Origin: an uncultured Vicinamibacteraceae bacterium
GTDB lineage: Bacteria > Acidobacteriota > Vicinamibacteria > Vicinamibacterales > UBA8438
Reading direction: 5' to 3'
DNA: 64,000 nucleotides
Assembly (NCBI GenBank): GCA_964624855.1
Contig: CAZUZW010000003.1
Span: 18,883-82,882, forward strand
Part shown: one piece after another, positions 27,439-49,331 of the stretch
Numbering within the stretch: the stretch's first letter is position 1
Layout of the letters: each line of letters begins with the position of its first letter
Notes under the pieces: generated by a model
Told to the model about the DNA's origin: nothing
Database searches by the model: none
The model's input: the letters and a program-made list of their open reading frames with translations, nothing else
Program-made: the position numbers and the translations under genes

Positions 27439-27515
27439 GCGCCCTTAGCTCAGCTGGATAGAGCGTCTGGCTACGAACCAGGAGGCCGCAGGTTCGAGTC
27501 CTGCAGGGCGCGCCA
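27439..27515 (+). tRNA. tRNA-Arg (anticodon ACG)
   Basis: GCGCCCT acceptor pairs with AGGGCGC; D arm AGCTCAG..GGATAGAGC; anticodon loop CTACGAA; GGTTCGAGTCC; encoded CCA. Confidence 0.97.
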
Positions 27516-27653: not shown

Positions 27654-28673
27654 TCAAGGAGTGACGGTGACCACAATATCCGAGTCAACGTTCAAGGCGC
27701 CGTCGGATGCGAGGGCCCGCAGGACGTAGGTTCCGGGCTCGTGAAAGATAGCGTTTGCCCGCCAAGTGTCGTCCTCTGGTAACGCGGGCGTTTCCCAGAA
27801 ATTGGCCCAAGGCGAATTGGCGTGTGCGCGACTGTCCTCCCAGACTTTGGTCTGGAGCGGATCGAACGTCACTTTCCCTTCCCCGCGGTAGACATACCAA
27901 GAGAATCTCAGTCCGCGGGCACTGCCAGGAGTTGTTTGGGACGGTCTTCGCCAGAGCGGGTTGTCAAACGGGCTGTCCGGTGCTCCTGTGCTGGTTCGCC
28001 GACCTCGGCTCACTCTGCGCCGACGTGGTGCTGGAACACCGTCATCGGTCGCGACCGCGACCAATGTCAAGCGGTCACCCACGCGGACAGTCCGCTGCGA
28101 CGGTCCTTCGACCCTCAGCACCGGTGCTATGTTTGCGCGAATCGTTGGGTTGGAGGTGCCTGCACCGATCGCGCCCTGTTCGGATGCTCTAATAAGACCA
28201 TCTACCCGATAGTCGAGTGAAAGAGTTCCATGCGCGGTGATGGTCTCGCCGTGCGTTGTCAGGCTCCAGACCATCTCATCGTCGAGTCCATAACCCTCCG
28301 GTACCGGAACTCGAAACACGAATCGGTTACGTCTCGGCAGGAACCGGGTCGGTTGTCCTTGGTCAGCTGTCTCCTGGTCGAACGCGCCAACCTCTTGACC
28401 GGCTTGGACGGCCACTACGAAATTATCTGGACCGATCGGGACATTAGGTTCTTCCTCCCAATTTTCGTTCATATAACCGAATACGAAGAAGCGGGACCCA
28501 TCTTCGTCCACCTCCCATCCTTCGTACGCGGCATAAACCGCCTGTCCCGATCTGTACGAACCCTGCGCCATCAGCCCAGGTTGGGTCATCACAACTGCGA
28601 CAATCGCGAGCAACGCCGCCGCCATTCCCGATCGTTGCGTTATCCGACAAAATGTAACGCTCTTCAGAAGCAT
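27654..28673 (-). CDS. Exported hypothetical protein with Ig/PKD-like C-terminus
   Basis: Signal-like AAALLAIVAVV...MAQ; C-terminal FHEPGTYVLRALASDG beta strands; start abuts the stop of the upstream monooxygenase-like gene. Confidence 0.75.
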   Translation of the reverse strand: MLLKSVTFCRITQRSGMAAALLAIVAVVMTQPGLMAQGSYRSGQAVYAAYEGWEVDEDGSRFFVFGYMNENWEEEPNVPIGPDNFVVAVQAGQEVGAFDQETADQGQPTRFLPRRNRFVFRVPVPEGYGLDDEMVWSLTTHGETITAHGTLSLDYRVDGLIRASEQGAIGAGTSNPTIRANIAPVLRVEGPSQRTVRVGDRLTLVAVATDDGVPAPRRRRVSRGRRTSTGAPDSPFDNPLWRRPSQTTPGSARGLRFSWYVYRGEGKVTFDPLQTKVWEDSRAHANSPWANFWETPALPEDDTWRANAIFHEPGTYVLRALASDGALNVDSDIVVTVTP

Positions 28674-30203
28674 CTACTGCCCGCCGGTGGAGTTGGCCGC
28701 TTTCTTTGATGCCTCTTTGGCCTCAGCATCCCTCACGGCACGTTCCGCGTCTTGTAGGGCCAGCTGTGCCTCTTCAAGTTCGGTCAGAGGTGTCACCATG
28801 CAGAGCGGACATCCGATGACATGGTCGTTCTTTGTGAGGTTGTGCATCTCGCGTCGATTGTCCATCTCCTCTTGGAACTGTTCATCAGTCATCGCTACGC
28901 CGTGTCCCAAGTCGATGAACATGTTGCCAACCGAGCGATTTCCTGCCCCTTGCCAGTTGCGTGGGTCGGGAATATTGCGGTTGCCAGCTGTGTTATCCAT
29001 GTACCCGACAATATGGAGGATCGTTCCCTTTGGCAGCAGCGGCTCGTAGCCGCGCGCATACTCATATCCGCGCACCCAATTGTGGTCGTACCCTGCACAG
29101 GTGAGTGTTTCGATGTTGTGGCCCCAGATTGCTTCCAAACACATCCGCGCCCCTGGGGCATGTAGGTGTGGTTCAAACGTAGTGATTTTTGTGTTTTCCC
29201 CAAGTACCCGATATGCGTGAAGTTCTTGGCCCTTCATGTTCGGTTTGATCGAGATATCAATGCCGTTGGCCAGTCCCCGTGACGCACGGCGATACTTTGG
29301 CTTGTAGTCCCGTGGATGGAAGCGCCATCCGATCTCCAGCCGGGCTTTCGTGTCTTTACCGTTCGAGTGCAGATGGACAGAGTTGGACACAACCGTTGAG
29401 TTGGCTGGCAACAGTCGTGCACCGTCAGGGTCGAAGGTGTCGGCGTTGCGGCCAACTTCGTGTACTGGCCATCCCGTACTGACTTGACTGTCCGAACCGC
29501 GCGATTCTGATGCGTCGCCCGTCACATCGAGTACGCGTGTACTCCAGATCATGTGATGAAAAATAAAGCGTCCACCGACCGTCTCTCGCGTGTCCTCGGT
29601 ATCGAGTACATCATTGACCTCACGGATTTCCACAGACTCCACGTAGCGATCTTCGGTGTTCCCAACTGGTACCGACTCGATCTCACCCCACCAGTCGGGA
29701 GCATCTCCCGGCATCACGAGGTCCTCGGTCACCGTGATTAGGTCAGGTTCGCCTGCCGTCCAGACCTTTGCATTTAGATCAATTGGTGGTGGCATGTCAG
29801 CGGGATTGCCCTGTGGCGCGCCATTGTCAGCCCAGCTGGCCATCATCGCGATCTCTTCATCGCTGAGCGATGGATCCAGTTGGTATTCCTGAATGCCGAT
29901 GTTCCTCTCAACATACCAAGGTGGCATCACGCCGGCTACAGGCCCCATACCGGTTCGCATCTTTATGGCTCGCGCCCAAGGGCGAACTTCCTCATACGTG
30001 ATCAGAGACATTGGTGCGACCGAGTCGGGCTGGTGGCATTGCTGGCAGCTGCGCTGCAAAATAGGTGCGATATCTCTGGTGAATGTCACGTCACCGTCGT
30101 GGGCTGTGCGCGGTTGTGCAGACACCGGCGACACGAACGCCATCCCTACTAAGAGGGTCAGTGCCATCACGAGGGTTATAGCAGTGTTTCTGGTGCACAG
30201 CAT
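28674..30203 (-). CDS. Exported cytochrome c / copper type II (PHM/DBH-like) monooxygenase fusion
   Basis: Signal peptide; CQQCH heme motif and MPPW distal Met; FHHM, VHLH, PHLH and GNMF as candidate CuH/CuM ligands. Confidence 0.75.
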   Translation of the reverse strand: MLCTRNTAITLVMALTLLVGMAFVSPVSAQPRTAHDGDVTFTRDIAPILQRSCQQCHQPDSVAPMSLITYEEVRPWARAIKMRTGMGPVAGVMPPWYVERNIGIQEYQLDPSLSDEEIAMMASWADNGAPQGNPADMPPPIDLNAKVWTAGEPDLITVTEDLVMPGDAPDWWGEIESVPVGNTEDRYVESVEIREVNDVLDTEDTRETVGGRFIFHHMIWSTRVLDVTGDASESRGSDSQVSTGWPVHEVGRNADTFDPDGARLLPANSTVVSNSVHLHSNGKDTKARLEIGWRFHPRDYKPKYRRASRGLANGIDISIKPNMKGQELHAYRVLGENTKITTFEPHLHAPGARMCLEAIWGHNIETLTCAGYDHNWVRGYEYARGYEPLLPKGTILHIVGYMDNTAGNRNIPDPRNWQGAGNRSVGNMFIDLGHGVAMTDEQFQEEMDNRREMHNLTKNDHVIGCPLCMVTPLTELEEAQLALQDAERAVRDAEAKEASKKAANSTGGQ

Positions 30204-30420
30204 TGCTTACACTCCTTTGGTCTCAGAAATTTCCCACTGAACAACAGCGATTATTCACTAGAACTGTACGTCTAGATTATATCGTTGTCAATCACTATAA
30301 CTTGTTGAAATGTAAACGATTACAGACGTTCTCGAGCCTTTCAGTTCACGCTAGCATGTATGAGCCTGCAAGGTTCTTTTTACTGAGCTGCAGGTCAGGC
30401 CATTGTAAGATTATCTTCGT

Positions 30421-31551
30421 ATGCGACATTTAAAAGTTTTAGCCATTTTAGTGTTGGTGTCCCTGTCGTTCGACTCGCTGTTAAGTCAGGACTTGGGGCC
30501 GACAGGGCCGAGTCCGTATGACGTCGTTGCCAATTGGCATAAACCCTTTGCCGAAGAGGGCTTTGCATTTGGCGGAAATTCTGGTGTGTTTGCCGAGTCT
30601 CCCGACAGGATATTTATCTCACAACGTGGAGAGACGAGACTCCCCAATCCGGTCCCGCCCGAGTTTGCCGGCTATGCGGGGTCGATTGGTATTAACGTGT
30701 TGAGTGATTCTGAATTTCGAACATGGCAGAACTGCCTGATGGTGGTTGACGGAGATGGCAATGTCCTTGAGGTGTGGGACCAGTGGGACCACTTGTGTGA
30801 CAGTGGGGAGGGGGGGCCCGGACCTCACAGGGTTCGAATCAGTCCCTATGACCCAGAACGTCGGGTATGGGTTGTCAATGAAACAAGACATCAAATTTTT
30901 GTGTTCTCTAATGACGGCAGTCAGTTGCTCATGACACTGGGTGAGAAAAACGTAGGTGGGAGTGACCAGACTCATTTTGGTCGTCCCCAGGACGTGGCGT
31001 TTCTACCTGACGGCAGAGTGTTGGTCGCGGATGGTCTTGATAATCACCGTGTGGTGATTTTGGATGGTCAAGGTAACTATCTGTCAGAATTCGGTGAATT
31101 CGGAGAAGGTCCAGGGCAGTTCAATGGCATACATGCGTTAGCCATAGGTCCTGACGGGCTAATTTTTGCTTTGGATCGGGCAAATGGTCGTGTCCAAGTG
31201 TTCAGACTGACGAGTGAAGCATCTGGAGATTACCACCCGGAAATCGACCATATTGATGTTTGGTCTGGATTCGGTCTTCCGCTCGACATCATTGTGAACA
31301 ACGAGCATGTTTGGGTGTCTGATCTGGGCCCCCTCAAGTTAGTAAAACTCGATTTTTCAGGAAATCGCTTATACACCTGGAATGTGTCGACCGAAGGGCC
31401 GACTGGATACTTAGAGGTACACACCATATCGGTAGATTCTGAAGGGAACTTGTATGGTGGGGACAACCAGCATGGACGCACACAAAAATTTGTGCCCAAG
31501 ACGGGGGCGGACCCGGCACTCATTATTGGCCCGCCATTTGTTGCCCGATGA
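30421..31551 (+). CDS. Exported NHL-repeat beta-propeller, peptidyl-alpha-hydroxyglycine lyase (PAL)-like
   Basis: Signal peptide; GPHRV, FGRPQDVAF, ADGLDNHRV, FNGIHALA, DRANGRVQVF, EVHTISVD. Confidence 0.78.
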   Translation: MRHLKVLAILVLVSLSFDSLLSQDLGPTGPSPYDVVANWHKPFAEEGFAFGGNSGVFAESPDRIFISQRGETRLPNPVPPEFAGYAGSIGINVLSDSEFRTWQNCLMVVDGDGNVLEVWDQWDHLCDSGEGGPGPHRVRISPYDPERRVWVVNETRHQIFVFSNDGSQLLMTLGEKNVGGSDQTHFGRPQDVAFLPDGRVLVADGLDNHRVVILDGQGNYLSEFGEFGEGPGQFNGIHALAIGPDGLIFALDRANGRVQVFRLTSEASGDYHPEIDHIDVWSGFGLPLDIIVNNEHVWVSDLGPLKLVKLDFSGNRLYTWNVSTEGPTGYLEVHTISVDSEGNLYGGDNQHGRTQKFVPKTGADPALIIGPPFVAR

Positions 31552-33632: not shown

Positions 33633-35567
33633 TTAGCGGTTTCTCAATTCGAGTTCTCGTGCTCGATTGAGGGCTTCCTGCGCTTCTGTCTGTTTTCCCT
33701 GTTCGGCTAGAGCCTGACCCAGGCCCTCGAACGCCTCGCCAAAGTCTGGCCGTAGCTCGAGAGTTCTTCTGAATTCCAACTCGGCATCCGAAAATTGTCG
33801 ACGAGCTAAGAAGATATTTCCTAAATTGAAATGGGCACCGCTGTGGTCAGGGTCTAGATCGAGAGTGCGGCGATAATATCGACTGGCTTCATCAAGGTTT
33901 CCAGCCAAATGAAACAGGCTGCCTAAGTTGTTGTTGGCCTCAACGAAAGTTGGGTCCAAGTCGAGGGCGCGCTGGTAGTAGTACATCGCTTCATCCCTCT
34001 TGTCTTGAAGCGCTAAAGCAGTTCCCAATCGGTAATAAACGGTCGGTTTAGTCGGGTCTAGGCGAGCAGCTTCTTCCAGGTGTCTGATCGCCTCGTCTAC
34101 TCGCCCCACCGCTGCGAGACTGGTCGCAAAGTTTTCATGGTTTTCACTACTGGGATTATCAGTCAGCTTCTTTTGTGTTCCCGCTAGTATGATCTCAGAG
34201 ACCTTTCGCCGGACGTCTTGGGCCAGTGTGGTTCGGTCCGTAGATCTCACCGGAACTACCTGTAATGTCAGTTCGGCCATTTCGTCAGTAGACCGGGGGC
34301 CAAAACGTACGCGTTTTGGAGGAGTGTGCGGGTTTCTGTGATTGTTCGTGGAGTTGTCAAAAACATATCGCATACGAATTGTTGTTCCTGCTGGTAAGCG
34401 GATGTTTTCGGTATATCGGTATTCGTCTTGCCAATTAAAATCCCAGTCGTCGATTTGAATTAGTTGCCGAACAGTACCGTTGGGCAATCGTGCTGATGCT
34501 CGGATTTGCTTCGCTAGAAAATGAGCGTGCGGGTAAATAGCAAGCAAGTCGACGTCAACAGGTAGTTGATAGGTGTCTTCGACCACGTGAGTGGCATCTC
34601 CAGCTGGAACATCAATTGTTTGTGATCCAAGTTGGATGATGGCGGGCGTGACGGTTGGTGGTTTGTCAGTAAAGAAGAGACCGACAGACAGTTGGAGGTT
34701 CACCGGTATATTACGTGACACAAGGTGTGTCTTAACGACTAAGTCGGTGCCGGGCTCGAGTAGCCAGGCCAACTCCTCTGGAGCATTACCCGCTAGTGTG
34801 CCTGGCGCCCAACCTAGAAAGTGGCCGTCTGGGAACTCGGTGCCATCGGTGGACGGTTCGTCATACCCGACTAAGTCGTCGGCATTGTCCTGACGTTGCG
34901 CTCTGCCGGTTGTATCGATCATTAATCGGGCGTGATGGATTCCTTGGGTTGTGGAGGGTTTTAGTTCGATTGCGGCAACGAAACGTCGTTCTTCAACTGG
35001 AATCGGGATCACAAAATTTCGATAGATCTCACTGTCTGGCGCCAGAGCATACGACGTTGGCATCGTTACAACGAGGTCGGGGATTCCCGAGTGCCACCCT
35101 TCAGGCCACACCGGTGATACTGGAGTTATCTGTGGGTTACCTTCCGGCGCACCAGCATCAACCCACCGGCGAATCAGTTCAACGTCGTTGTCTTGCAGAC
35201 GGCGTTCTCCTCGAAAGCGTTCACTGACTGATTCAGGTTTCCACGGGGGCATGTTGCCACTCTGTACAACTTGGGCAATCTGCTCGGCGCGACCTTTAAC
35301 AGCGTCGAACGTTGTCAGACTGAACGGAGCGATGGCACTGGGCCGGTGACAAACCACGCAGTGGGTGTTCAGAATCGACGCAATTTGTCCAGCGTAGGTA
35401 ACTGTGCCTGACGATAGGTCTTGAGCAAGACCCCAATTAGCCCACAGACATATGGCGACAATGCCGGCGGTTGTAGCCAACGGTTTTCTGGGGGCAACTG
35501 CTCGGTCTAATTGCTTTGCCACGGTGTTCCCTCTGGCCGTTAAGCGAAGTGTCACCAACACTAGCAC
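33633..35567 (-). CDS. Cytochrome c / copper type II monooxygenase-like protein with C-terminal TPR repeats
   Basis: CVVCH, MPPW, IHHA, KTHL, PHAH, WDFNWQ, DEM; about 5 TPRs (e.g. ANNNLG..LF, AHFNLG); start uncertain. Confidence 0.8.
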   Translation of the reverse strand: MLVLVTLRLTARGNTVAKQLDRAVAPRKPLATTAGIVAICLWANWGLAQDLSSGTVTYAGQIASILNTHCVVCHRPSAIAPFSLTTFDAVKGRAEQIAQVVQSGNMPPWKPESVSERFRGERRLQDNDVELIRRWVDAGAPEGNPQITPVSPVWPEGWHSGIPDLVVTMPTSYALAPDSEIYRNFVIPIPVEERRFVAAIELKPSTTQGIHHARLMIDTTGRAQRQDNADDLVGYDEPSTDGTEFPDGHFLGWAPGTLAGNAPEELAWLLEPGTDLVVKTHLVSRNIPVNLQLSVGLFFTDKPPTVTPAIIQLGSQTIDVPAGDATHVVEDTYQLPVDVDLLAIYPHAHFLAKQIRASARLPNGTVRQLIQIDDWDFNWQDEYRYTENIRLPAGTTIRMRYVFDNSTNNHRNPHTPPKRVRFGPRSTDEMAELTLQVVPVRSTDRTTLAQDVRRKVSEIILAGTQKKLTDNPSSENHENFATSLAAVGRVDEAIRHLEEAARLDPTKPTVYYRLGTALALQDKRDEAMYYYQRALDLDPTFVEANNNLGSLFHLAGNLDEASRYYRRTLDLDPDHSGAHFNLGNIFLARRQFSDAELEFRRTLELRPDFGEAFEGLGQALAEQGKQTEAQEALNRARELELRNR

Positions 35568-35727
35568 AGGCCATGATGTTGCAATGAAACCGAATCTCGG
35601 TGCAAGCCTCTAGCGAGAATCCTCGAGTCGGTCCGCGGTCGGTGCATTGTCTAGTCTCGTGGTACCATCCGCCAGACGGTTGAGTATCCAGTTGGCGGTC
35701 GTCCAGAGTGGAGTATGTATCGGTTGT

Positions 35728-37527
35728 ATGAGTAACCAGACAGTTATGCGTCTCTGTTCGTACACAGTGGCTATAGCCATGTCCTGTCTGGGGTGTGCAG
35801 GGGAGTCTGTTCAAGAGTTTTCTGACGAGTCGGTGACCACCGGTGGTCCGGTTCTTACTGATGGTCCTCCTGGGGACGACACACCCGGCTGGTTTACGGA
35901 AAGGGCCGAGGCGACTGGCTTACGGTTTACCCACCTCAACGGCATGTCTGGTGAGTTCTTTTTTCCAGAGATGATTCCTGGCGGTGTCGGGGTGCTTGAC
36001 TACGACAATGATGGTGATCTCGATGTGTATTTGGTTCAGGGACGTATGCTTGGGGATCAGGTTGGCTTGGACCGGTCACTCCTTGAACCGGATTCTACAT
36101 TTGAGCTTGGCGGTCGATTGTTTCGCAACGACTTAGACCCGACGACCGGTGACCCAGCTTCACTCCGGTTCACGGACGTCACCGAGGAGAGTGGAATTGA
36201 AACGTTTGAGTATGGAATGGGGGTCGCAGCCGGTGACGTCGACAATGATGGGTGTATAGATATCTATTTGACGAATTTTGGACCGAACCAGTTATTACGT
36301 AATAACTGTGACGGTACGTTTAGTGATGTTTCAGCTGAAAGTGGCACTAACGATCCTGGTTGGGCTGTTTCAGCGTCGTTTGTTGATTACGACCGTGACG
36401 GTTGGTTGGATCTATATGTTGGTAATTATCTGCAATACCAAATTGAAACGGACCAACCCTGCACTGGCTTGACCGGTCGTCGTGACTACTGCACGCCCGA
36501 CCTCTACACACCACAAGCGGATCGTTTGTATCAAAACCAGAGGAACGGTCAGTTCGTTGATATTACGTCTATGGCTTTGTTTGGAACCGATCATGGCCCG
36601 GCGTTAGGGGTATCGACGGCGGATTTTGATTCTGACGGTTGGGTCGATATTTATGTGGCGAATGATGGCGGTGACAATCTTCTCTGGATGAATCAAGGGG
36701 ATGGCACGTTGTCTCACTTGGGTTTGCTGTCGGGTGTTGCGCTAAGTGGTGACGGCACTGCAGAGGGCAGTATGGGTGTGGATGCGGCTGACTTTGACAA
36801 TGATGGCGATCCAGACCTGTTCATGACTCACTTACCGGCTGAGGGCAATAACTTGTATCTCAATAACGGGTCAGGCGTATTCGAAGATGTCAGTGGCCGA
36901 GTGGGCCTTGGGCCCTTGAGCCTCGGGCGGACTGGTTTTGGTACGGCGTGGCTAGATGTCGATAACGACGGGTGGCTTGACGTTGTAGCTGTGAACGGTG
37001 CCATAGAGGCAATTGAGGGGCGCCTAGGTGAAGCTTTTCCTTACGACGAGCAAAACTCGCTTTTCCTAAACCTTCGAAACGGCCGGTTCGACGACGTGAC
37101 GAATCAGGCTGGTGCGGCCTTTAATCTGTCTGAAGTCAGTCGCGGCGCAGCGGTCGGAGATCTCGACAATGATGGTGATACTGACATTGTTGTGAGTAAC
37201 AATAGTGGACCCGTTCGACTGTTAATAAATGAAGTTGGTCAGCGTGCGCACTGGCTCGGATTAGACCTTCGCCAAGAAGGGTCGCGATATGCCATAGGTG
37301 CGCGAGTTGAGGTAACCCGATCAACCGAGCCACCGGTCTGGCGGCGAGTACGGTCCGATGGTAGTTACGCCTCGGCAAGTGACTCCAGAGTGCTGGTCGG
37401 GTTGGGTCAGTCGTCTGAACTTCCTGCGGTTCAGGTGTTTTGGCCGAGTGGTCGAGTGGAACTGTGGCCCGATGTTGAGATTGACCGTTACGTGACGCTT
37501 GCCGAAGGGCAGGGACTCGAACAATGA
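35728..37527 (+). CDS. FG-GAP/VCBS repeat plus ASPIC-UnbV (CRTAC1-like) probable lipoprotein
   Basis: Repeated DxDNDGxxD Ca-blade motifs; C-terminal AIGARVEV...GSYAS...GLG...WPSG; lipobox-like CLGC. Confidence 0.88.
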   Translation: MSNQTVMRLCSYTVAIAMSCLGCAGESVQEFSDESVTTGGPVLTDGPPGDDTPGWFTERAEATGLRFTHLNGMSGEFFFPEMIPGGVGVLDYDNDGDLDVYLVQGRMLGDQVGLDRSLLEPDSTFELGGRLFRNDLDPTTGDPASLRFTDVTEESGIETFEYGMGVAAGDVDNDGCIDIYLTNFGPNQLLRNNCDGTFSDVSAESGTNDPGWAVSASFVDYDRDGWLDLYVGNYLQYQIETDQPCTGLTGRRDYCTPDLYTPQADRLYQNQRNGQFVDITSMALFGTDHGPALGVSTADFDSDGWVDIYVANDGGDNLLWMNQGDGTLSHLGLLSGVALSGDGTAEGSMGVDAADFDNDGDPDLFMTHLPAEGNNLYLNNGSGVFEDVSGRVGLGPLSLGRTGFGTAWLDVDNDGWLDVVAVNGAIEAIEGRLGEAFPYDEQNSLFLNLRNGRFDDVTNQAGAAFNLSEVSRGAAVGDLDNDGDTDIVVSNNSGPVRLLINEVGQRAHWLGLDLRQEGSRYAIGARVEVTRSTEPPVWRRVRSDGSYASASDSRVLVGLGQSSELPAVQVFWPSGRVELWPDVEIDRYVTLAEGQGLEQ

Positions 37528-37746
37528 GGAGCGGCTGGAGAAGAATAGAATCCTTAAACGAGATTCGCTTGTCCCTCGAATTCGGTCGCACCGGTGGTCT
37601 TCGGAAGTAACGATCTTCGTATTCCCCAACAAACTGGTATCGCACTAGTGAGTCGCCTGTAAAGGAAGTATCTGTCTGATCGCTTGCATTAGACAGGGAG
37701 ACATCAGACCGTGTTAGCATCGACTAGAAGTCTTTTCTTGTGTCGT

Positions 37747-39396
37747 ATGCGAATTCGAATCTGGTGCCAAACTAGTTGGGTAGCTTGTGCTTTGCTGAGT
37801 AGCGGGTGTGCCGGTTCTGACCCGGACCCAGCGGAGCAGAATGTTGTGGCCGTGCCCGGTGATACTTCAAGAATTGAACCTCCAACTGGCCGAGATCTGC
37901 AACCCGTCGTACTGCCTGATTTTTCTGTCATGGCTGAATCTGTCCGAGAGCAAATGCACGTCCAACTTGCTCTCGTGAGGTCTGCCATTGAGGATGGGAG
38001 TCAAAGTTCTGCAGCTCTCGGGGTTGCCTATGGGGATATGGGCAACCTGTTGCTAGCAGCGTCATTTTTTGAGGCTGCCGGGACATGCTACGGCAATGCC
38101 CAGACACTTCTTCCTGATGACCGACGATGGCCCTATTATCTGGGTCATGTCTACCGGAACACCGGTCCCATTGATGCCGCTGCGACTGCCTTTGAGCGTG
38201 CGCTAGAACTTGCACCGAACGATGTGGCAACACTCGTTTGGCTCGGTGACATTTATCTTGATCAGGGTCTGGTTGAAGCTGCTGAACCGTTATTCAGTCA
38301 GGCATTGGCCATACGACCGGCGTCAGCCGCGGCCCGGTTTGGAGCAGGTCGTGTGGCGCTCACTAACGGTGATTCTGCCCAAGCAGTTCAGGACTTTGAG
38401 GCGGCACTCGCATTTCGGCCCCAGGCGTCCACCATCCATGTTCCGCTGGCCATGGCTTATCGGAACTTGGGAGACCTTGACCGCGCGGAGACACATCTTG
38501 ACCAGCGGGGAGATGTAGAAGTCACTCCCAGGGATCCCCTGATGCAAGAAGTTGCTTCATTGCTTGAAAGTGCCGAAGCCTACAACGTCAGGGGGGGGCA
38601 AGCCATGGATGTTGGCAACTGGGCTGATGCTGCGACTTGGTTTCGTAGAGGATTGGAACTCGCGCCGACGGATCCGTCACTGCAGCACCGCCTCGGGACT
38701 GCACTCTATCAACTGGCAGACGAGGCTGGTGCGGAAGCCGCATTCGAAGCGGCGATTCGTGCGGATCCTGGCTATGTTGGCGCGCGCTACAGTCTGGGTG
38801 TCCTTCGCGCGGCAGCGGGGCGGCATCAAGAGGCCATTGACCATTTTTCAGTAGCGCTGGAACACGATCCGGTCAACATTCAAGCACGGGCGCAACTTGC
38901 CGGTGTCTTGGGGCGGAGTGGACAACCCCGTGAGGCGCTGGCGGAATACGAACGCGTGCTTGAAATGGATCCGGCACATCAGGACGCAGCGTTTGGCTAC
39001 GCAATGACCCTCGTGCGATTGGAGCGTTACGCCGACGCGCGAACCAGACTGTCCGCCGATAGCGAACGGTATCCTGATCATCCATTGTTTACGCATGCGT
39101 TAGCGCGCTTGTTGTCAGCGGCTCCGGATGACCAGGTGCGAGATGCTAGTTTGGCGCAACAGCTGATTGAACGACTTCTTGAGCAGCAACAGACCATTGA
39201 ACTTGGCGAAACGACCGCGATGATGTTGGCCGAACTTGGTGAGTATGGTCAGGCTGTCGCTGTGCAACGCGACCTATTGATTGCTGCCCAACAAGCTGGT
39301 CTTGTGGAAGTCACTGCGAGACTCGAAGTGAACCTCGCTCGGTATGAACGTGGTGAACCCTGCCGTATCCCGTGGACGCCGGAAGAACTTCCCTAG
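37747..39396 (+). CDS. TPR-repeat probable lipoprotein
   Basis: LLSSGC lipobox-like sequence; many TPRs (WPYYLG, ARYSLG, ALELAP). Confidence 0.85.
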   Translation: MRIRIWCQTSWVACALLSSGCAGSDPDPAEQNVVAVPGDTSRIEPPTGRDLQPVVLPDFSVMAESVREQMHVQLALVRSAIEDGSQSSAALGVAYGDMGNLLLAASFFEAAGTCYGNAQTLLPDDRRWPYYLGHVYRNTGPIDAAATAFERALELAPNDVATLVWLGDIYLDQGLVEAAEPLFSQALAIRPASAAARFGAGRVALTNGDSAQAVQDFEAALAFRPQASTIHVPLAMAYRNLGDLDRAETHLDQRGDVEVTPRDPLMQEVASLLESAEAYNVRGGQAMDVGNWADAATWFRRGLELAPTDPSLQHRLGTALYQLADEAGAEAAFEAAIRADPGYVGARYSLGVLRAAAGRHQEAIDHFSVALEHDPVNIQARAQLAGVLGRSGQPREALAEYERVLEMDPAHQDAAFGYAMTLVRLERYADARTRLSADSERYPDHPLFTHALARLLSAAPDDQVRDASLAQQLIERLLEQQQTIELGETTAMMLAELGEYGQAVAVQRDLLIAAQQAGLVEVTARLEVNLARYERGEPCRIPWTPEELP

Positions 39397-44854: not shown

Positions 44855-45200
44855 TTACTATCTCCTGCAATGATTTCTTGATCTGATACTCGCCACGATA
44901 GATCTCTTTCAAATGTTCCGCAAGCATGTCCCATCTCTGTGGGGCCGACAGACCCTTAACCTCTTGTGGAGTAATAGGTGACGTGCCATGATGAGGTCGG
45001 TACTACTAACCTGTGGGACCGTTCACTTTTTGAAGAAGGCACGCGACTCTTGAATTAATTGAAAATTGGGCGTGACAGAGGACCTGGTTGCCTCGGCACG
45101 ATGGGTGCAAGATTACCGTCCCATCGTCGGAAACCTGAAAGTTTCCTTGTTCTCTAAACTCGACCGGACCTTATTTACAGTCAGCCAGGAGGAATTTCAT

Positions 45201-47171
45201 ATGCCAGGTCGTTGGATCAACATCACGTGGCTTGTGTGGCTTAGTGGGGTTTGGTTAGTCGGATCAACCCAACAACTAGGTGCACAAGGCACCGAGAATG
45301 GTGAGTGGCGCAGCTATGGGGGAGACATCGCCAATACGCGGTATTCACCACTCGACCAGATTAACGGTGACAATTTTGAAGAACTTGAAATTGCTTGGCA
45401 GGTCAAGACGGTGAACTTCGGGCCAAACCCTGAGTTCAATCTGCAGTCGACACCGCTGATGGTTAATGGTGTGGTCTACTCCACGGCTGGGTCACGTCGC
45501 GCGGTTATCGCCTTGGACGCTGGGACCGGCGAGTTGTTGTGGATGCACCGTCTTGATGAAGGCGAACGTGGTGCTGCCGCGCCACGACGGCTTTCGGGCC
45601 GTGGTCTTGCCTACCGGGACGACGGCAGGAACGGAGAGATTTTCTATGTTACGCCTGGCTACCGATTGATCGGACTCGACGCTCGAACGGGACAACGACT
45701 TTCTGATTTTGGTGACAATGGGAGTGTTGACTTGAAGCAAAACTTTGACCAAGACATAGATCTGATCACTGGTGAAGCGGGGCTGCATGCGACACCGCTC
45801 GTGGCTGGCGACACCATCGTCGTGGGAGCTGCGCATTTGCCCGGTGGGACGGCGAAGTCAATGCAAAATGTGAAGGGCTATATTCGCGGGTACGATGCCC
45901 AAACCGGTCAGCGGAAGTGGATTTTTCACACTATTCCAGGTGCCGACGACTTCGGGAATGACACTTGGCTCAATGAATCTTGGCGGTATACCGGTAACAC
46001 CGGAGTGTGGGGGCAGATCAGTGCGGACCTGGATCTCGGAATCGCGTATCTGCCAACTGAAATGCCCACCAACGATTATTACGGTGGACATAGACACGGT
46101 GACAATTTGTTTTCCGATAGTCTCATCGCCGTAGACCTCGAAACTGGAGAGCGATTGTGGCACTACCAGTTCATTCACCATGATGTCTGGGATTGGGATC
46201 TTCCTTGTGCACCGATCTTGGCGGATGTGGTGATCGATGGTGTTGAACGAAAGATTGTGGCGCAACCTTCTAAACAGGCGTGGCTTTACGTTTTTGACCG
46301 AGTCACCGGAGAGCCGATTTGGCCAATCGAAGAGCACCCTGTGGAGGCATCAACTGTGCCCGGAGAGCTGCTCTCTCTGACGCAGCCGTTTCCAACGAAG
46401 CCGCCTGCCTACGATCGACAGGGCGTTAGCCTTGATGATCTTGTCGACTTCACACCAGAAATTCGGAGACGCGCAGAAGAGATTGCGGGTCGACATCGAA
46501 TTGGCCCAATTTTTACGCCAATTACCGTGTCAGATCCCGACGGTGTGATCGGAACATTGATGTTACCGTCAACGGGGGGCGGTACAAATTGGCCGGGTGG
46601 CTCGATCGATCCGGAGACGGGAATCGCCTACCTTTACTCGGTTACCAATGTTTCCGTGCTGGGGCTCGTCAATGATCCAAGACAGTCGGACATGGATTTC
46701 ATTCGGGGTCGGGCGCGGGAGATTCCCGCGGTAGACGCTGCCCTTAATGTTGACGGGATCCCGCTTGTCAAGCCCCCGTGGGGTCGCATCACGGCGATCG
46801 ATCTCACCCAAGGAGAGATTCTCTGGCAGATTGCCCACGGGGAGACCGCCGACAATATCAGGAACCATCCCCTCCTTGAGGGTGTCAACGTACCTCGGAC
46901 CGGCCGGGTTGGCCGTGTTGGGACGCTGATAACCAAGACCCTCGTTATTGCCGGTGAGCCCGGGACATTCACAACGGCGTCAGGTGAGCGCGGCGCGATG
47001 TTGCGAGCTTATGATAAGGCGACTGGTGAGGAGCTAGGCAGCGTTTATATGCCCACGGGGGTTTCCGGTTCACCCATGACGTATATGCATGAGGGCAGCC
47101 AGTACATCGTCGTGGCTATCAGCGGCGGCGGCTTCCCTGGTGAGTTCATCGCATATCGGTTGCCAGAATAG
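45201..47171 (+). CDS. PQQ-dependent dehydrogenase (glucose/quinate/shikimate-like), exported
   Basis: AGGAGG SD before ATG 45201; WRSYGGD..NTRYSPLDQIN, QSTPL, HHDVWDWD, GGTNWPGGS, PPWGRI, PMTY...QY. Confidence 0.88.
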   Translation: MPGRWINITWLVWLSGVWLVGSTQQLGAQGTENGEWRSYGGDIANTRYSPLDQINGDNFEELEIAWQVKTVNFGPNPEFNLQSTPLMVNGVVYSTAGSRRAVIALDAGTGELLWMHRLDEGERGAAAPRRLSGRGLAYRDDGRNGEIFYVTPGYRLIGLDARTGQRLSDFGDNGSVDLKQNFDQDIDLITGEAGLHATPLVAGDTIVVGAAHLPGGTAKSMQNVKGYIRGYDAQTGQRKWIFHTIPGADDFGNDTWLNESWRYTGNTGVWGQISADLDLGIAYLPTEMPTNDYYGGHRHGDNLFSDSLIAVDLETGERLWHYQFIHHDVWDWDLPCAPILADVVIDGVERKIVAQPSKQAWLYVFDRVTGEPIWPIEEHPVEASTVPGELLSLTQPFPTKPPAYDRQGVSLDDLVDFTPEIRRRAEEIAGRHRIGPIFTPITVSDPDGVIGTLMLPSTGGGTNWPGGSIDPETGIAYLYSVTNVSVLGLVNDPRQSDMDFIRGRAREIPAVDAALNVDGIPLVKPPWGRITAIDLTQGEILWQIAHGETADNIRNHPLLEGVNVPRTGRVGRVGTLITKTLVIAGEPGTFTTASGERGAMLRAYDKATGEELGSVYMPTGVSGSPMTYMHEGSQYIVVAISGGGFPGEFIAYRLPE

Positions 47172-47306
47172 AGTCATTGGGTTTCGCGTCAATCTTTTCC
47201 TTGGTCGACTGATTCATTAGAGGTGGTTTAAAAAACTGGCAGCAGCCCTGTCGTTTTTGCGTTAGCATTGCTGGGTTCTGGCAAGCGTGGCTAGGGAGGC
47301 AGAGTA

Positions 47307-48215
47307 ATGAAAAGAACGGTTATTTTTGGAGTGTTGTTAGTCGTTTGTTCGTTATCACTAGCGGTTGGTACGGCACAGCAGGGTGAACAGGTAGTTGAGG
47401 TCGACCAGCTGAGGGATAACCTCTACATTCTTCGGGGCGGTGGCGGGAACTCGGCAGCCTTTGTGACCAGTGATGGTGTGGTGCTCGTTGATACCAAGCT
47501 GGCTGGTTGGGGCCAGCCGCTTCTTGACAAGATCGGTGAGCTAACCTCCAACCCGGTCACGACGATTATTAATACTCATACTCACTTCGACCATGTGAGT
47601 GGCAACGTTGATTTTCCGACGACTGTCAGCGTAGTGACTCACGAAAACACCGAACAGTTGATGGGTGAATGGAACCCGGTCACTGGGTTGGGTCGAGAGC
47701 CTCCAAATGTGTTTGACACAAGTGGTGGACAGGGGATGCCGACCCAGACGTTTACCGATAGCCTGACATTGGGAAGTGGTGCCGACCAGGTTGATCTTTA
47801 TTACTTTGGTCGTGCGCATACGAGCGGCGACGCATGGGTGGTTTTTCCTTCGCTGCGTGTCATGCACGCCGGTGATGCATTTCCAGGCAAGCAAGTTCCA
47901 ATCATGGATGCGAACAACGGTGGGAGTGGTGTTGATTACCCGGTCACTCTTTGGAACGCGTACGCTGGTGTTCCTGAAATCGATACAATTATCACGGGCC
48001 ACAGTGCCCCGATGATGCGAGACGATCTCCGCGAATATGCGACTTTTGTAGGAGCATTTGTCAGTGCGGCCCGATCGGCCAAAAGGGATGGTTTTTCAGC
48101 AGAAGAATTTGCACGTGTCTGGCAGGTTCCGCCGAGGTTCATGGGGTATCGCAAGCCCGCTCCCGAACGGCTTCAGGCCTACGTGCAGGTTGTTTTTGAC
48201 GAAATCGAAGAGTAG
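47307..48215 (+). CDS. Exported metallo-beta-lactamase-fold hydrolase (paralog of 31699-32634)
   Basis: GGAGG SD; signal peptide; THTHFDH, AHTSGD, HAGD, TGH. Confidence 0.88.
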   Translation: MKRTVIFGVLLVVCSLSLAVGTAQQGEQVVEVDQLRDNLYILRGGGGNSAAFVTSDGVVLVDTKLAGWGQPLLDKIGELTSNPVTTIINTHTHFDHVSGNVDFPTTVSVVTHENTEQLMGEWNPVTGLGREPPNVFDTSGGQGMPTQTFTDSLTLGSGADQVDLYYFGRAHTSGDAWVVFPSLRVMHAGDAFPGKQVPIMDANNGGSGVDYPVTLWNAYAGVPEIDTIITGHSAPMMRDDLREYATFVGAFVSAARSAKRDGFSAEEFARVWQVPPRFMGYRKPAPERLQAYVQVVFDEIEE

Positions 48216-48227
48216 CGTGAGGCGTGC

Positions 48228-49331
48228 ATGACGGCACGCTGGATTTTGCAAATTCGTCTTACGCTACTGGCGCTAATCAGTAGTCTCGCTGCCGCAGGGA
48301 TCGCTCAAGCACACCCGATCCCTTTCAGCTACCTTGATCTTCGCCTTGGAGAGACTGGCGGGGGCGAGGCTACCTTGGTCGTGCATATCATCGATCTAGC
48401 GCATGACCTCGAGATTGATCCACCGGAACAATTACTCGACCAAGCATTTGTTGTGGAACAGGCCGACGCAATGGCTGACTTGGTGGAGGGACGCCTGCGT
48501 CTTTCGGCTGGAGGCCGGGTGTTTCAGCCTAACTGGCTTATTCCTGAAGTCCTGCCCGATCGTCAATCGGTGCGACTTCGATTTCACTATGTTTTTAACC
48601 AGACGCCCGGCGTAATTGGGATTGATGCTCTCCTGTTTCCGTACGACCCACGGCACCAGACGTTTCTCAATGTTTACGAAGCAGGTGAACTAAGGAATCA
48701 GGCCATCCTTGATTTAAATCATCCAAGGACGGAGTATTTCTTGGGAACCTGGCAGGGTACGCGCGCTGTGGTGCAGCGGTTTTTACCACTGGGCGTCGAA
48801 CACATTTTGACGGGAGCCGACCATCTGCTGTTTCTTGTTGGGCTGTTGTTGCTGGGTGGCAGTGTCCGGCAGTTACTGATTGTAGTGACCGCTTTCACTC
48901 TGGCCCACAGTGTCACGCTTTCTTTGTCAGTACTAAATGTTTTCAGCCCACCCTCGAATATTGTTGAGCCGGCGATTGCGCTGAGTATCGTCTGGGTCGG
49001 TGCCGATAATCTATTGGTTGGTGGTGGCCGAGATTTGCGTGCGTGGATCGCTTTTGTCTTCGGATTGATTCATGGGTTTGGGTTTGCTGGAATTCTTCGC
49101 GCGATGAATTTACCGAATCGGGACGTAGCTTGGTCACTAGTCTCTTTCAATGTGGGTGTTGAAATTGGCCAACTAGCGGTCGTCATCGCCGCTGCGGCGG
49201 CGTTGGCGGCATTACGGGCGCGTAGCGAATTGTTTGGCCAACGTCTGGCAACGGTTGGTTCGGTTGTCGTCATCGTGGTCGGTGGGGTTTGGTTTGTGCA
49301 ACGTGTTTTCTTCCCTTGGGGGCTGTCGTGA
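48228..49331 (+). CDS. HupE/UreJ-family membrane protein with N-terminal periplasmic domain
   Basis: AQAH cleavage site with N-terminal His; GVEHILTGADHLLF, TAFTLAHSVTL, FGLIHGFGFA, FNVGVEIGQ. Confidence 0.85.
   Translation: MTARWILQIRLTLLALISSLAAAGIAQAHPIPFSYLDLRLGETGGGEATLVVHIIDLAHDLEIDPPEQLLDQAFVVEQADAMADLVEGRLRLSAGGRVFQPNWLIPEVLPDRQSVRLRFHYVFNQTPGVIGIDALLFPYDPRHQTFLNVYEAGELRNQAILDLNHPRTEYFLGTWQGTRAVVQRFLPLGVEHILTGADHLLFLVGLLLLGGSVRQLLIVVTAFTLAHSVTLSLSVLNVFSPPSNIVEPAIALSIVWVGADNLLVGGGRDLRAWIAFVFGLIHGFGFAGILRAMNLPNRDVAWSLVSFNVGVEIGQLAVVIAAAAALAALRARSELFGQRLATVGSVVVIVVGGVWFVQRVFFPWGLS

Follow-up and report, generated by a model that had tools for sequence, protein, structure and literature searches.

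Do the two genes that face each other across 217 nt in a 64,000-nt stretch of an uncultured Vicinamibacteraceae genome (contig CAZUZW010000003.1; this whole stretch is hereafter the window) encode the two halves of a bacterial PAM, namely a PHM-like copper monooxygenase and a PAL-like lyase, as the initial annotation of the locus had proposed? The first gene (28674-30203, minus strand) encodes a 509 aa heme-c-fused copper protein with a predicted PHM/DBH fold, referred to here as the oxygenase, and the second (30421-31551, plus strand) a 376 aa exported-type six-bladed NHL propeller of the PAL type (Pfam NHL). Their head-to-head arrangement over the intergenic region 30204-30420 was borne out, and all motifs quoted for both open reading frames are found in the genes to which they had been assigned. 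The same span also holds a third gene that had gone undiscussed, directly downstream of the oxygenase (27654-28673, minus strand; 339 aa counted from the first ATG), which proved to be a conserved partner. The reading that we favour, with somewhat better than even confidence, is that the oxygenase is a heme-fed periplasmic two-copper monooxygenase of the PHM/DBH type with an accessory subunit, probably not acting on Gly-extended peptides, and that the propeller is independent of it; this reading draws on sequence, predicted fold match, ligand conservation and gene linkage. The genome spans 2.89 Mb in 161 contigs, and the named organisms nearest to it are marine Vicinamibacteraceae (Acidobacteriota). 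Labels with G, L and C denote the genomes, loci and contigs compared, G000 being the window's own genome.

The oxygenase: predicted fold and ligands

A structural model of the oxygenase built on 150 homologs (pLDDT 86.8, pTM 0.85) consists of an N-terminal helical domain and a pair of beta subdomains. Foldseek matched it best to human DBH (E 2.7e-10) and rat PHM (E 1.7e-7), and a Foldseek-independent search of 48,161 chains placed 1sdw (Z 15.0), 5wm0 (Z 14.1) and 4zel (Z 10.7) ahead of a next entry at Z 7.4. Upon realignment, the top 26 entries were all PHM or DBH (Z 12.6-15.8; next unrelated entry, Z 7.5), with DBH 4zel at Z 15.8 (root-mean-square deviation 3.6, 268 aligned residues) and PHM 1sdw at Z 15.0 (root-mean-square deviation 4.5, 248 aligned residues). 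As modelled, the protein would adopt the two-subdomain fold of type II copper monooxygenases (PHM/DBH), and putative CuH and CuM ligands follow in the order known for that class. The N-terminal domain resembles cytochrome PccH (4rlr) at a modest Z of 7.1, with 23% identity and a profile E of 0.005.

Heme-type motifs are CQQCH at residues 53-57 and MPPW at 93 (distal Met93), while the copper-type motifs are FHHM at 215 (H216, H217), VHLH at 276 (H277, H279), PHLH at 345 (H346, H348) and GNMF at 426 (M428). The candidate CuH set comprises His216, His217 and His277 and the candidate CuM set His346, His348 and Met428. The ligand order given in the initial annotation holds, with one correction concerning VHLH, where H277 is the invariant residue and H279 is kept in only 142 of 150 alignment rows. 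Fifteen homologs of 24-70% identity share 21 invariant columns, ten of which are C53, C56, H57, M93, H216, H217, H277, H346, H348 and M428, and in the wider 150-row alignment these ten heme and copper ligands are kept in 147-150 rows; the motifs therefore stand beyond chance. Spacing is likewise similar to that of PHM, whose copper ligands in the available text of PMC12164859 are His107, His108, His172, His242, His244 and Met314: the intervals HH-H, H-HxH and HxH-M measure 60, 69 and 80 residues in the oxygenase vs 64, 70 and 70 in PHM by that numbering.

The substrate site is another matter. According to the same available text, PHM holds the substrate carboxylate by Arg240 with Tyr318 and Asn316 (PMC12164859). 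In a register taken from the ligands, which is not a residue-level structural alignment, PHM Arg240, Asn316, Tyr318 and Gln170 fall on Glu344, Ile430, Leu432 and Ser275 of the oxygenase, and E344, I430 and L432 are each found in 136-139 of the 150 rows. By this mapping the Arg240, Asn316 and Tyr318 of PHM proper are missing from the oxygenase, and the peptide amidation put forward in the initial annotation is unlikely on the strength of these four replacements.

The features of a c-type cytochrome with His/Met ligation appear to be present as far as the sequence can tell: CxxCH, a distal Met, a helical domain, an export-type N-terminus and maturation-gene motifs, the last being CcmF- and CcmC-type motifs on contig C4 of the window genome. 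By a hydropathy check, the oxygenase and the propeller each have a single N-terminal hydrophobic stretch and none further on.

The family is very large. A protein search with the oxygenase returned 6,999 matches among 8,000 scored candidates, and the matches listed are unnamed or named merely cytochrome c or hypothetical. The window genome has 13 family members, one without the ligands, and nine complete relatives of the same family have 5-31 matches per genome (173 in all, along with 189 propeller matches). Neither Pfam nor NCBIfam gave a copper-monooxygenase match for the oxygenase itself, Pfam reporting a sub-threshold cytochrome c and NCBIfam nothing. PF03712 is carried by 12-13% of the members of related Atlas clusters, which means that automatic annotation has reached the family to some extent. 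Homologs of PHM or PAL from bacteria have been mentioned in the literature, and our literature searches, made in openly accessible articles, found no characterisation of a heme-fused PHM-like family.

A conserved partner gene downstream of the oxygenase

Neighbours were counted in the 80 best of 422 confirmed oxygenase relatives in GTDB genomes, and the downstream partner family is present in 67 of these 80 loci. Pairwise identities of partner and oxygenase co-vary (Spearman 0.92 over 73 pairs of kin, which are not independent). Pfam has no match in the partner family except PKD in 2 of 44 members, NCBIfam returned nothing for the window partner, and there is no His, Cys or Met among the invariant columns of its alignment, as might be expected of a subunit with a structural or substrate-binding role. 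The product of 27654-28673 is of exported type and likely an accessory subunit. Its probable start is Met17 (~28625), and the matching Atlas record begins at residue 17. The oxygenase stop abuts the ATG at 28673/28674, a junction at which G010 and one RNA-library contig carry ~115-117 extra bases.

At three other loci, L083 (G000:C6:53885-59668), L007 and L009, one oxygenase is followed by four tandem diverged partner copies. An apparent oxygenase-partner fusion on contig C51 was rejected because it spans a run of N, i.e., a scaffold gap.

The propeller: a PAL-like subfamily with Leu at the catalytic Tyr position

The propeller model (pLDDT 89.9) has rat PAL 3fvz as its top match (Foldseek E 2.9e-19; VIA Z 31.1 at 25% identity), the next NHL protein scoring 29.4, which predicts a six-bladed NHL fold closest to PAL. 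The motifs that had been read in this gene all stand: GPHRV at 134, DGLDNHR at 204 in the Tyr position, GIHAL at 236, DRANGR at 252 and EVHTI at 332, together with the three His, and PAL is the best structural match. Arg69, His136, His238, Arg253 and His334 are invariant in 86 of 86 close homologs. Through L120 aligned to 3fvz, PAL His585, His690 and Arg706 map to His136, His238 and Arg253, while His334 falls at a His786-like place by the phmmer range to 3fvz, with Thr335 for Asp787. The sequence retains counterparts of the three PAL His, which serve as Zn ligands there, and of Arg706.

What the propeller does not retain is the Tyr. PAL Tyr654 and Glu707 correspond to Leu206 and Ala254, the Leu being found in 86 of 86 aligned homologs and DGLDN in 118 of 120 matches. 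Tyr and Arg form the catalytic dyad of PAL in the available text of PMC10303134. With three His and Arg kept and Leu206 invariant, the propeller represents a PAL-like subfamily that is conserved but lacks the catalytic Tyr. Among 37 further propeller loci of the wider clade the Tyr site is mostly Leu, with Tyr in two and Phe in three. Glu332, two residues ahead of His334, is invariant and could serve as a candidate base. Most likely, the propeller is a lyase or hydrolase in its own right that depends on a metal.

The window genome holds 16 propeller paralogs. Those at L086 (G000:C59:3568-9814) and L090 (G000:C95) keep the Tyr; on C59, a distant oxygenase paralog is found 3.5 kb away from the propeller, and the one on C95 falls within the wider clade of the window propeller.

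The oxygenase-propeller pair is probably confined to a small clade

If the two proteins formed a dedicated PAM-like pair for peptide amidation or N-acylglycine cleavage, their best folds (PHM/DBH and PAL), their head-to-head genes in G000, G010 and L001, and the three His and Arg253 kept by the propeller would all be in keeping with it. The comparison of genomes points elsewhere. A window-type propeller occurs in 1 of the 80 best oxygenase loci, namely L001, from a near-identical genome with a 99% identical oxygenase, and other propellers lie downstream of the oxygenase in 4 of the 80. Eleven genomes of the genus have the arrangement intact in G000 and G010 only, and in 30 propeller loci viewed with 1.5-kb flanks the oxygenase is next door only in the window genome and in G010 (97% identity). 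In the nine complete genomes, an oxygenase-family gene at a distance of 10 kb or less was found for 0 of 17 window-type propellers, vs 1.3 expected. For 37 further window-type loci, with flanks of at most ~6 kb and some cut by contig ends, three are near an oxygenase-family gene vs 1.6 expected from gene density (P=0.23), none of these three head-to-head, and neighbour clustering returned no family in more than seven of the 37 beyond the propeller itself and shadow frames.

In G008, a close relative of the same genus, the oxygenase has been lost but the propeller remains. The oxygenase-partner cassette is bounded by a tRNA-Arg(ACG) at 27439-27515 (plus strand), and G008 has the same tRNA and flanking genes, with the counterpart of window 28682-30380 missing within one gap-free contig. 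Its partner gene is a broken remnant with stops and an internal deletion (L141/L094, G008:C5, ~72850-73950), while the propeller gene of G008 is undamaged (95% identity, dN/dS 0.08).

The initial annotation had proposed a dedicated hydroxylase/lyase pair and had named, as what would undo the idea, a lack of association between the two families beyond chance given their copy numbers. That lack is what we find for the subfamily of the window propeller, with 0 of 17 within 10 kb, 3 of 37 near an oxygenase-family gene and the oxygenase deleted in G008. With adjacency at chance outside the clade, a propeller kept without the oxygenase, Leu and Ala in place of Tyr654 and Glu707, and Glu in place of Arg240 by register, we regard the dedicated PAM-like pair as highly improbable. 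The propeller beside the oxygenase is probably a local neighbour, only in a small clade, and a dedicated amidation pair at the window locus is not a claim worth pursuing.

Alternatives to the favoured reading

Several observations weigh against the favoured reading of a PHM/DBH-type monooxygenase and an independent propeller. The oxygenase is just 9-12% identical to PHM and DBH, and sequence searches of the PDB with it did not reach either of them, returning nothing or cytochrome c stretches alone. Of 200 genomes surveyed in the order, 33 bear the propeller, and 26 of these have the oxygenase subfamily too (8-9 candidates scored per genome), a co-occurrence to be set against 6.9 expected naively and 23.4 expected within families (P=0.08). 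G008, in which the oxygenase is gone, retains 13 family matches, among them a TPR-fused paralog at 2.1 kb from its propeller, so that the loss is compatible with action in trans. Lastly, propellers outside the window subfamily are found near oxygenase-family genes more often than a rotation of positions predicts (20 of 172 within 5 kb vs 7.1 expected).

The first of these points bears on the chemistry. A heme-copper protein on a PHM scaffold might carry out some other redox reaction (as an oxidase, a reductase or an electron transfer protein) instead of oxygen insertion, a possibility fed by the low identity, by the replaced substrate-site residues and by potential ligands that are conserved in this subfamily specifically, i.e., His248-Glu249, Cys355, Cys369 and a C-terminal CPLC (window 28800-28811 and 29457-29462, minus strand), of which His248-Glu249 is found in 139 of 150 rows and CPLC in 95 of 150. 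Since even very distant paralogs preserve the six ligands, CuM Met included, in the order and spacing seen in PHM, we consider this unlikely.

The remaining points bear on action in trans, by which paralogous oxygenases and PAL-like propellers would form a loose periplasmic toolkit for hydroxylation and C-N cleavage, the Tyr-less propeller cleaving a non-peptide carbinolamine or carbinolamide made by a paralog. The 13 oxygenase and 16 propeller paralogs of the genome, the genomic co-occurrence in 26 of 33 and the invariant Glu332 as a possible base are compatible with it. So is the enrichment of the other propellers, given that two control families are not enriched near oxygenase genes (sulfatases, 3 of 53 vs 2.2 expected; metallo-beta-lactamase-fold proteins, 5 of 109 vs 4.3 expected). 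Ten of the 20 oxygenase-near propellers have, by alignment, DGY and three His-type motifs, and at L122, L128 and L129 (G015, G017) partner, oxygenase and a propeller with Tyr and three His stand in co-directional rows. A FastTree tree places the oxygenase-near propellers, however, outside the window clade, and the independent cases number fewer than 20, as several of them repeat one locus in orthologous form; it also speaks against action in trans that the co-occurrence is not significant within families (P=0.08) and that no neighbour family recurs in more than seven of the 37 window-type loci. We rate action in trans as a minority explanation, clearly behind the favoured reading of an independent propeller.

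The wider idea of a split PAM is still alive in view of the enrichment that other PAL-like subfamilies show near PHM-like genes, and these bacteria may have a split PAM-like system without the window's propeller. As sites of a possible split PAM-like operon, L122, L128, L129 and L125 are more promising than the window. At L125 (G016), a Tyr-keeping PAL-like propeller is found with partner and oxygenase in convergent orientation. A further type of propeller near oxygenase genes has His at the Tyr site and often Glu for the third His (e.g., L123, L126, L131, G000:C40, C1).

RNA-library contigs, promoter search and surrounding genes

In each of four marine RNA-library runs, contigs overlie parts of the oxygenase gene; for the propeller this holds in two of the four. 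A single contig extends over both oxygenase and partner. Since the runs had been selected by the window stretch, and portions of a control stretch are covered as well, these contigs neither rank the genes nor prove transcription. A single sigma-70-like match is found in the intergenic region (minus strand, 30291-30263), which is chance level, with one match vs 3.0 expected in shuffles. In three RNA libraries, contig ends fall at 30233-30256, a short way downstream of this site, which weakly hints at a start.

A second, distant oxygenase paralog (26% identity) with heme c, PHM-type ligands and C-terminal TPR repeats is encoded at 33633-35567 (minus strand), 2.1 kb past the propeller. It adjoins an FG-GAP/ASPIC-UnbV gene (35647-37527), and another TPR gene lies at 37711-39396. 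A PQQ-type dehydrogenase, a metallo-beta-lactamase-fold protein and a HupE/UreJ gene are consecutive at 45066-49331 (plus strand); the dehydrogenase, 14 kb off, is a possible periplasmic electron donor for the oxygenase.

Known systems, proposed mechanism and significance

Animal PHM starts peptide amidation and DBH makes noradrenaline. To rat PHM (1PHM, 1SDW) and human DBH (4ZEL), the oxygenase is akin in its predicted two-subdomain fold (Z ~15), in ligand order and similar spacing, and in being apparently exported. It differs from them in having its own N-terminal His/Met cytochrome c domain and a conserved downstream partner gene, in its low identity, in the Glu, Ile, Leu and Ser that take the places of Arg240, Asn316, Tyr318 and Gln170 by register, and in having no match to Pfam Cu2_monoox. 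Its N-terminal domain resembles PccH of Geobacter (4RLR), which is a monoheme, stand-alone electron carrier, whereas in the oxygenase it is joined to a copper core. The propeller shares with rat PAL (3fvz) the six-bladed NHL fold, the equivalents of His585, His690 and Arg706 and a His at the His786-like place, but has Leu206, Ala254 and Thr335 for Tyr654, Glu707 and Asp787 and is a stand-alone gene with no conserved neighbour. Compared with the bifunctional or split PAM of animals and green algae, relatives of both halves do stand side by side in the window genome, but the linkage is not conserved, and in both halves residues central to substrate binding and catalysis have been exchanged. The oxygenase, in short, is a real, uncharacterised variant of a known enzyme class (PHM/DBH), and a PAM-like pairing at this locus is unsupported.

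For the heme-fed monooxygenase that we favour, the following course may be envisaged. The protein would be exported and receive its heme from a system I maturation apparatus, in agreement with the CcmF/CcmC-type motifs of the genome. Electrons from periplasmic redox carriers, replacing ascorbate, would pass to the His/Met heme and on to CuH and CuM, as ligands and fold suggest, and by homology with PHM/DBH, O2 would react at CuM, with H abstraction and hydroxylation. Glu344 at the place of PHM Arg240, as placed by sequence register, would favour a neutral or amine substrate and not a carboxylate, and the product of 27654-28673 would work with the oxygenase as a probable accessory subunit. Given 13 paralogs in a 2.9-Mb genome, the role of the family is likely an oxidative attack on varied small organic compounds.

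A broader scenario, which we hold to be possible with rather low confidence, is that Vicinamibacterales of sea and soil and other bacteria possess a genome-wide, ascorbate-free and heme-fed periplasmic toolkit for the PHM/PAL two-step chemistry, in which dozens of monooxygenase paralogs with their partners would hydroxylate carbons next to nitrogen in dissolved organic compounds and PAL-like propellers, the Tyr-less one included, would cleave the products.

The available text of PMC12164859 describes PHM and DBH as ascorbate-reduced enzymes of animals or algae and presents the passage of electrons from one copper to the other as a matter of continuing dispute. A soluble enzyme of this type from bacteria, carrying its own heme, would offer a spectroscopic handle on that inter-copper step, as well as a vitamin-C-free catalyst for C-H hydroxylation. 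With a family of very large size and marine RNA-library contigs over the oxygenase gene, these proteins may matter for the turnover of dissolved organic matter.

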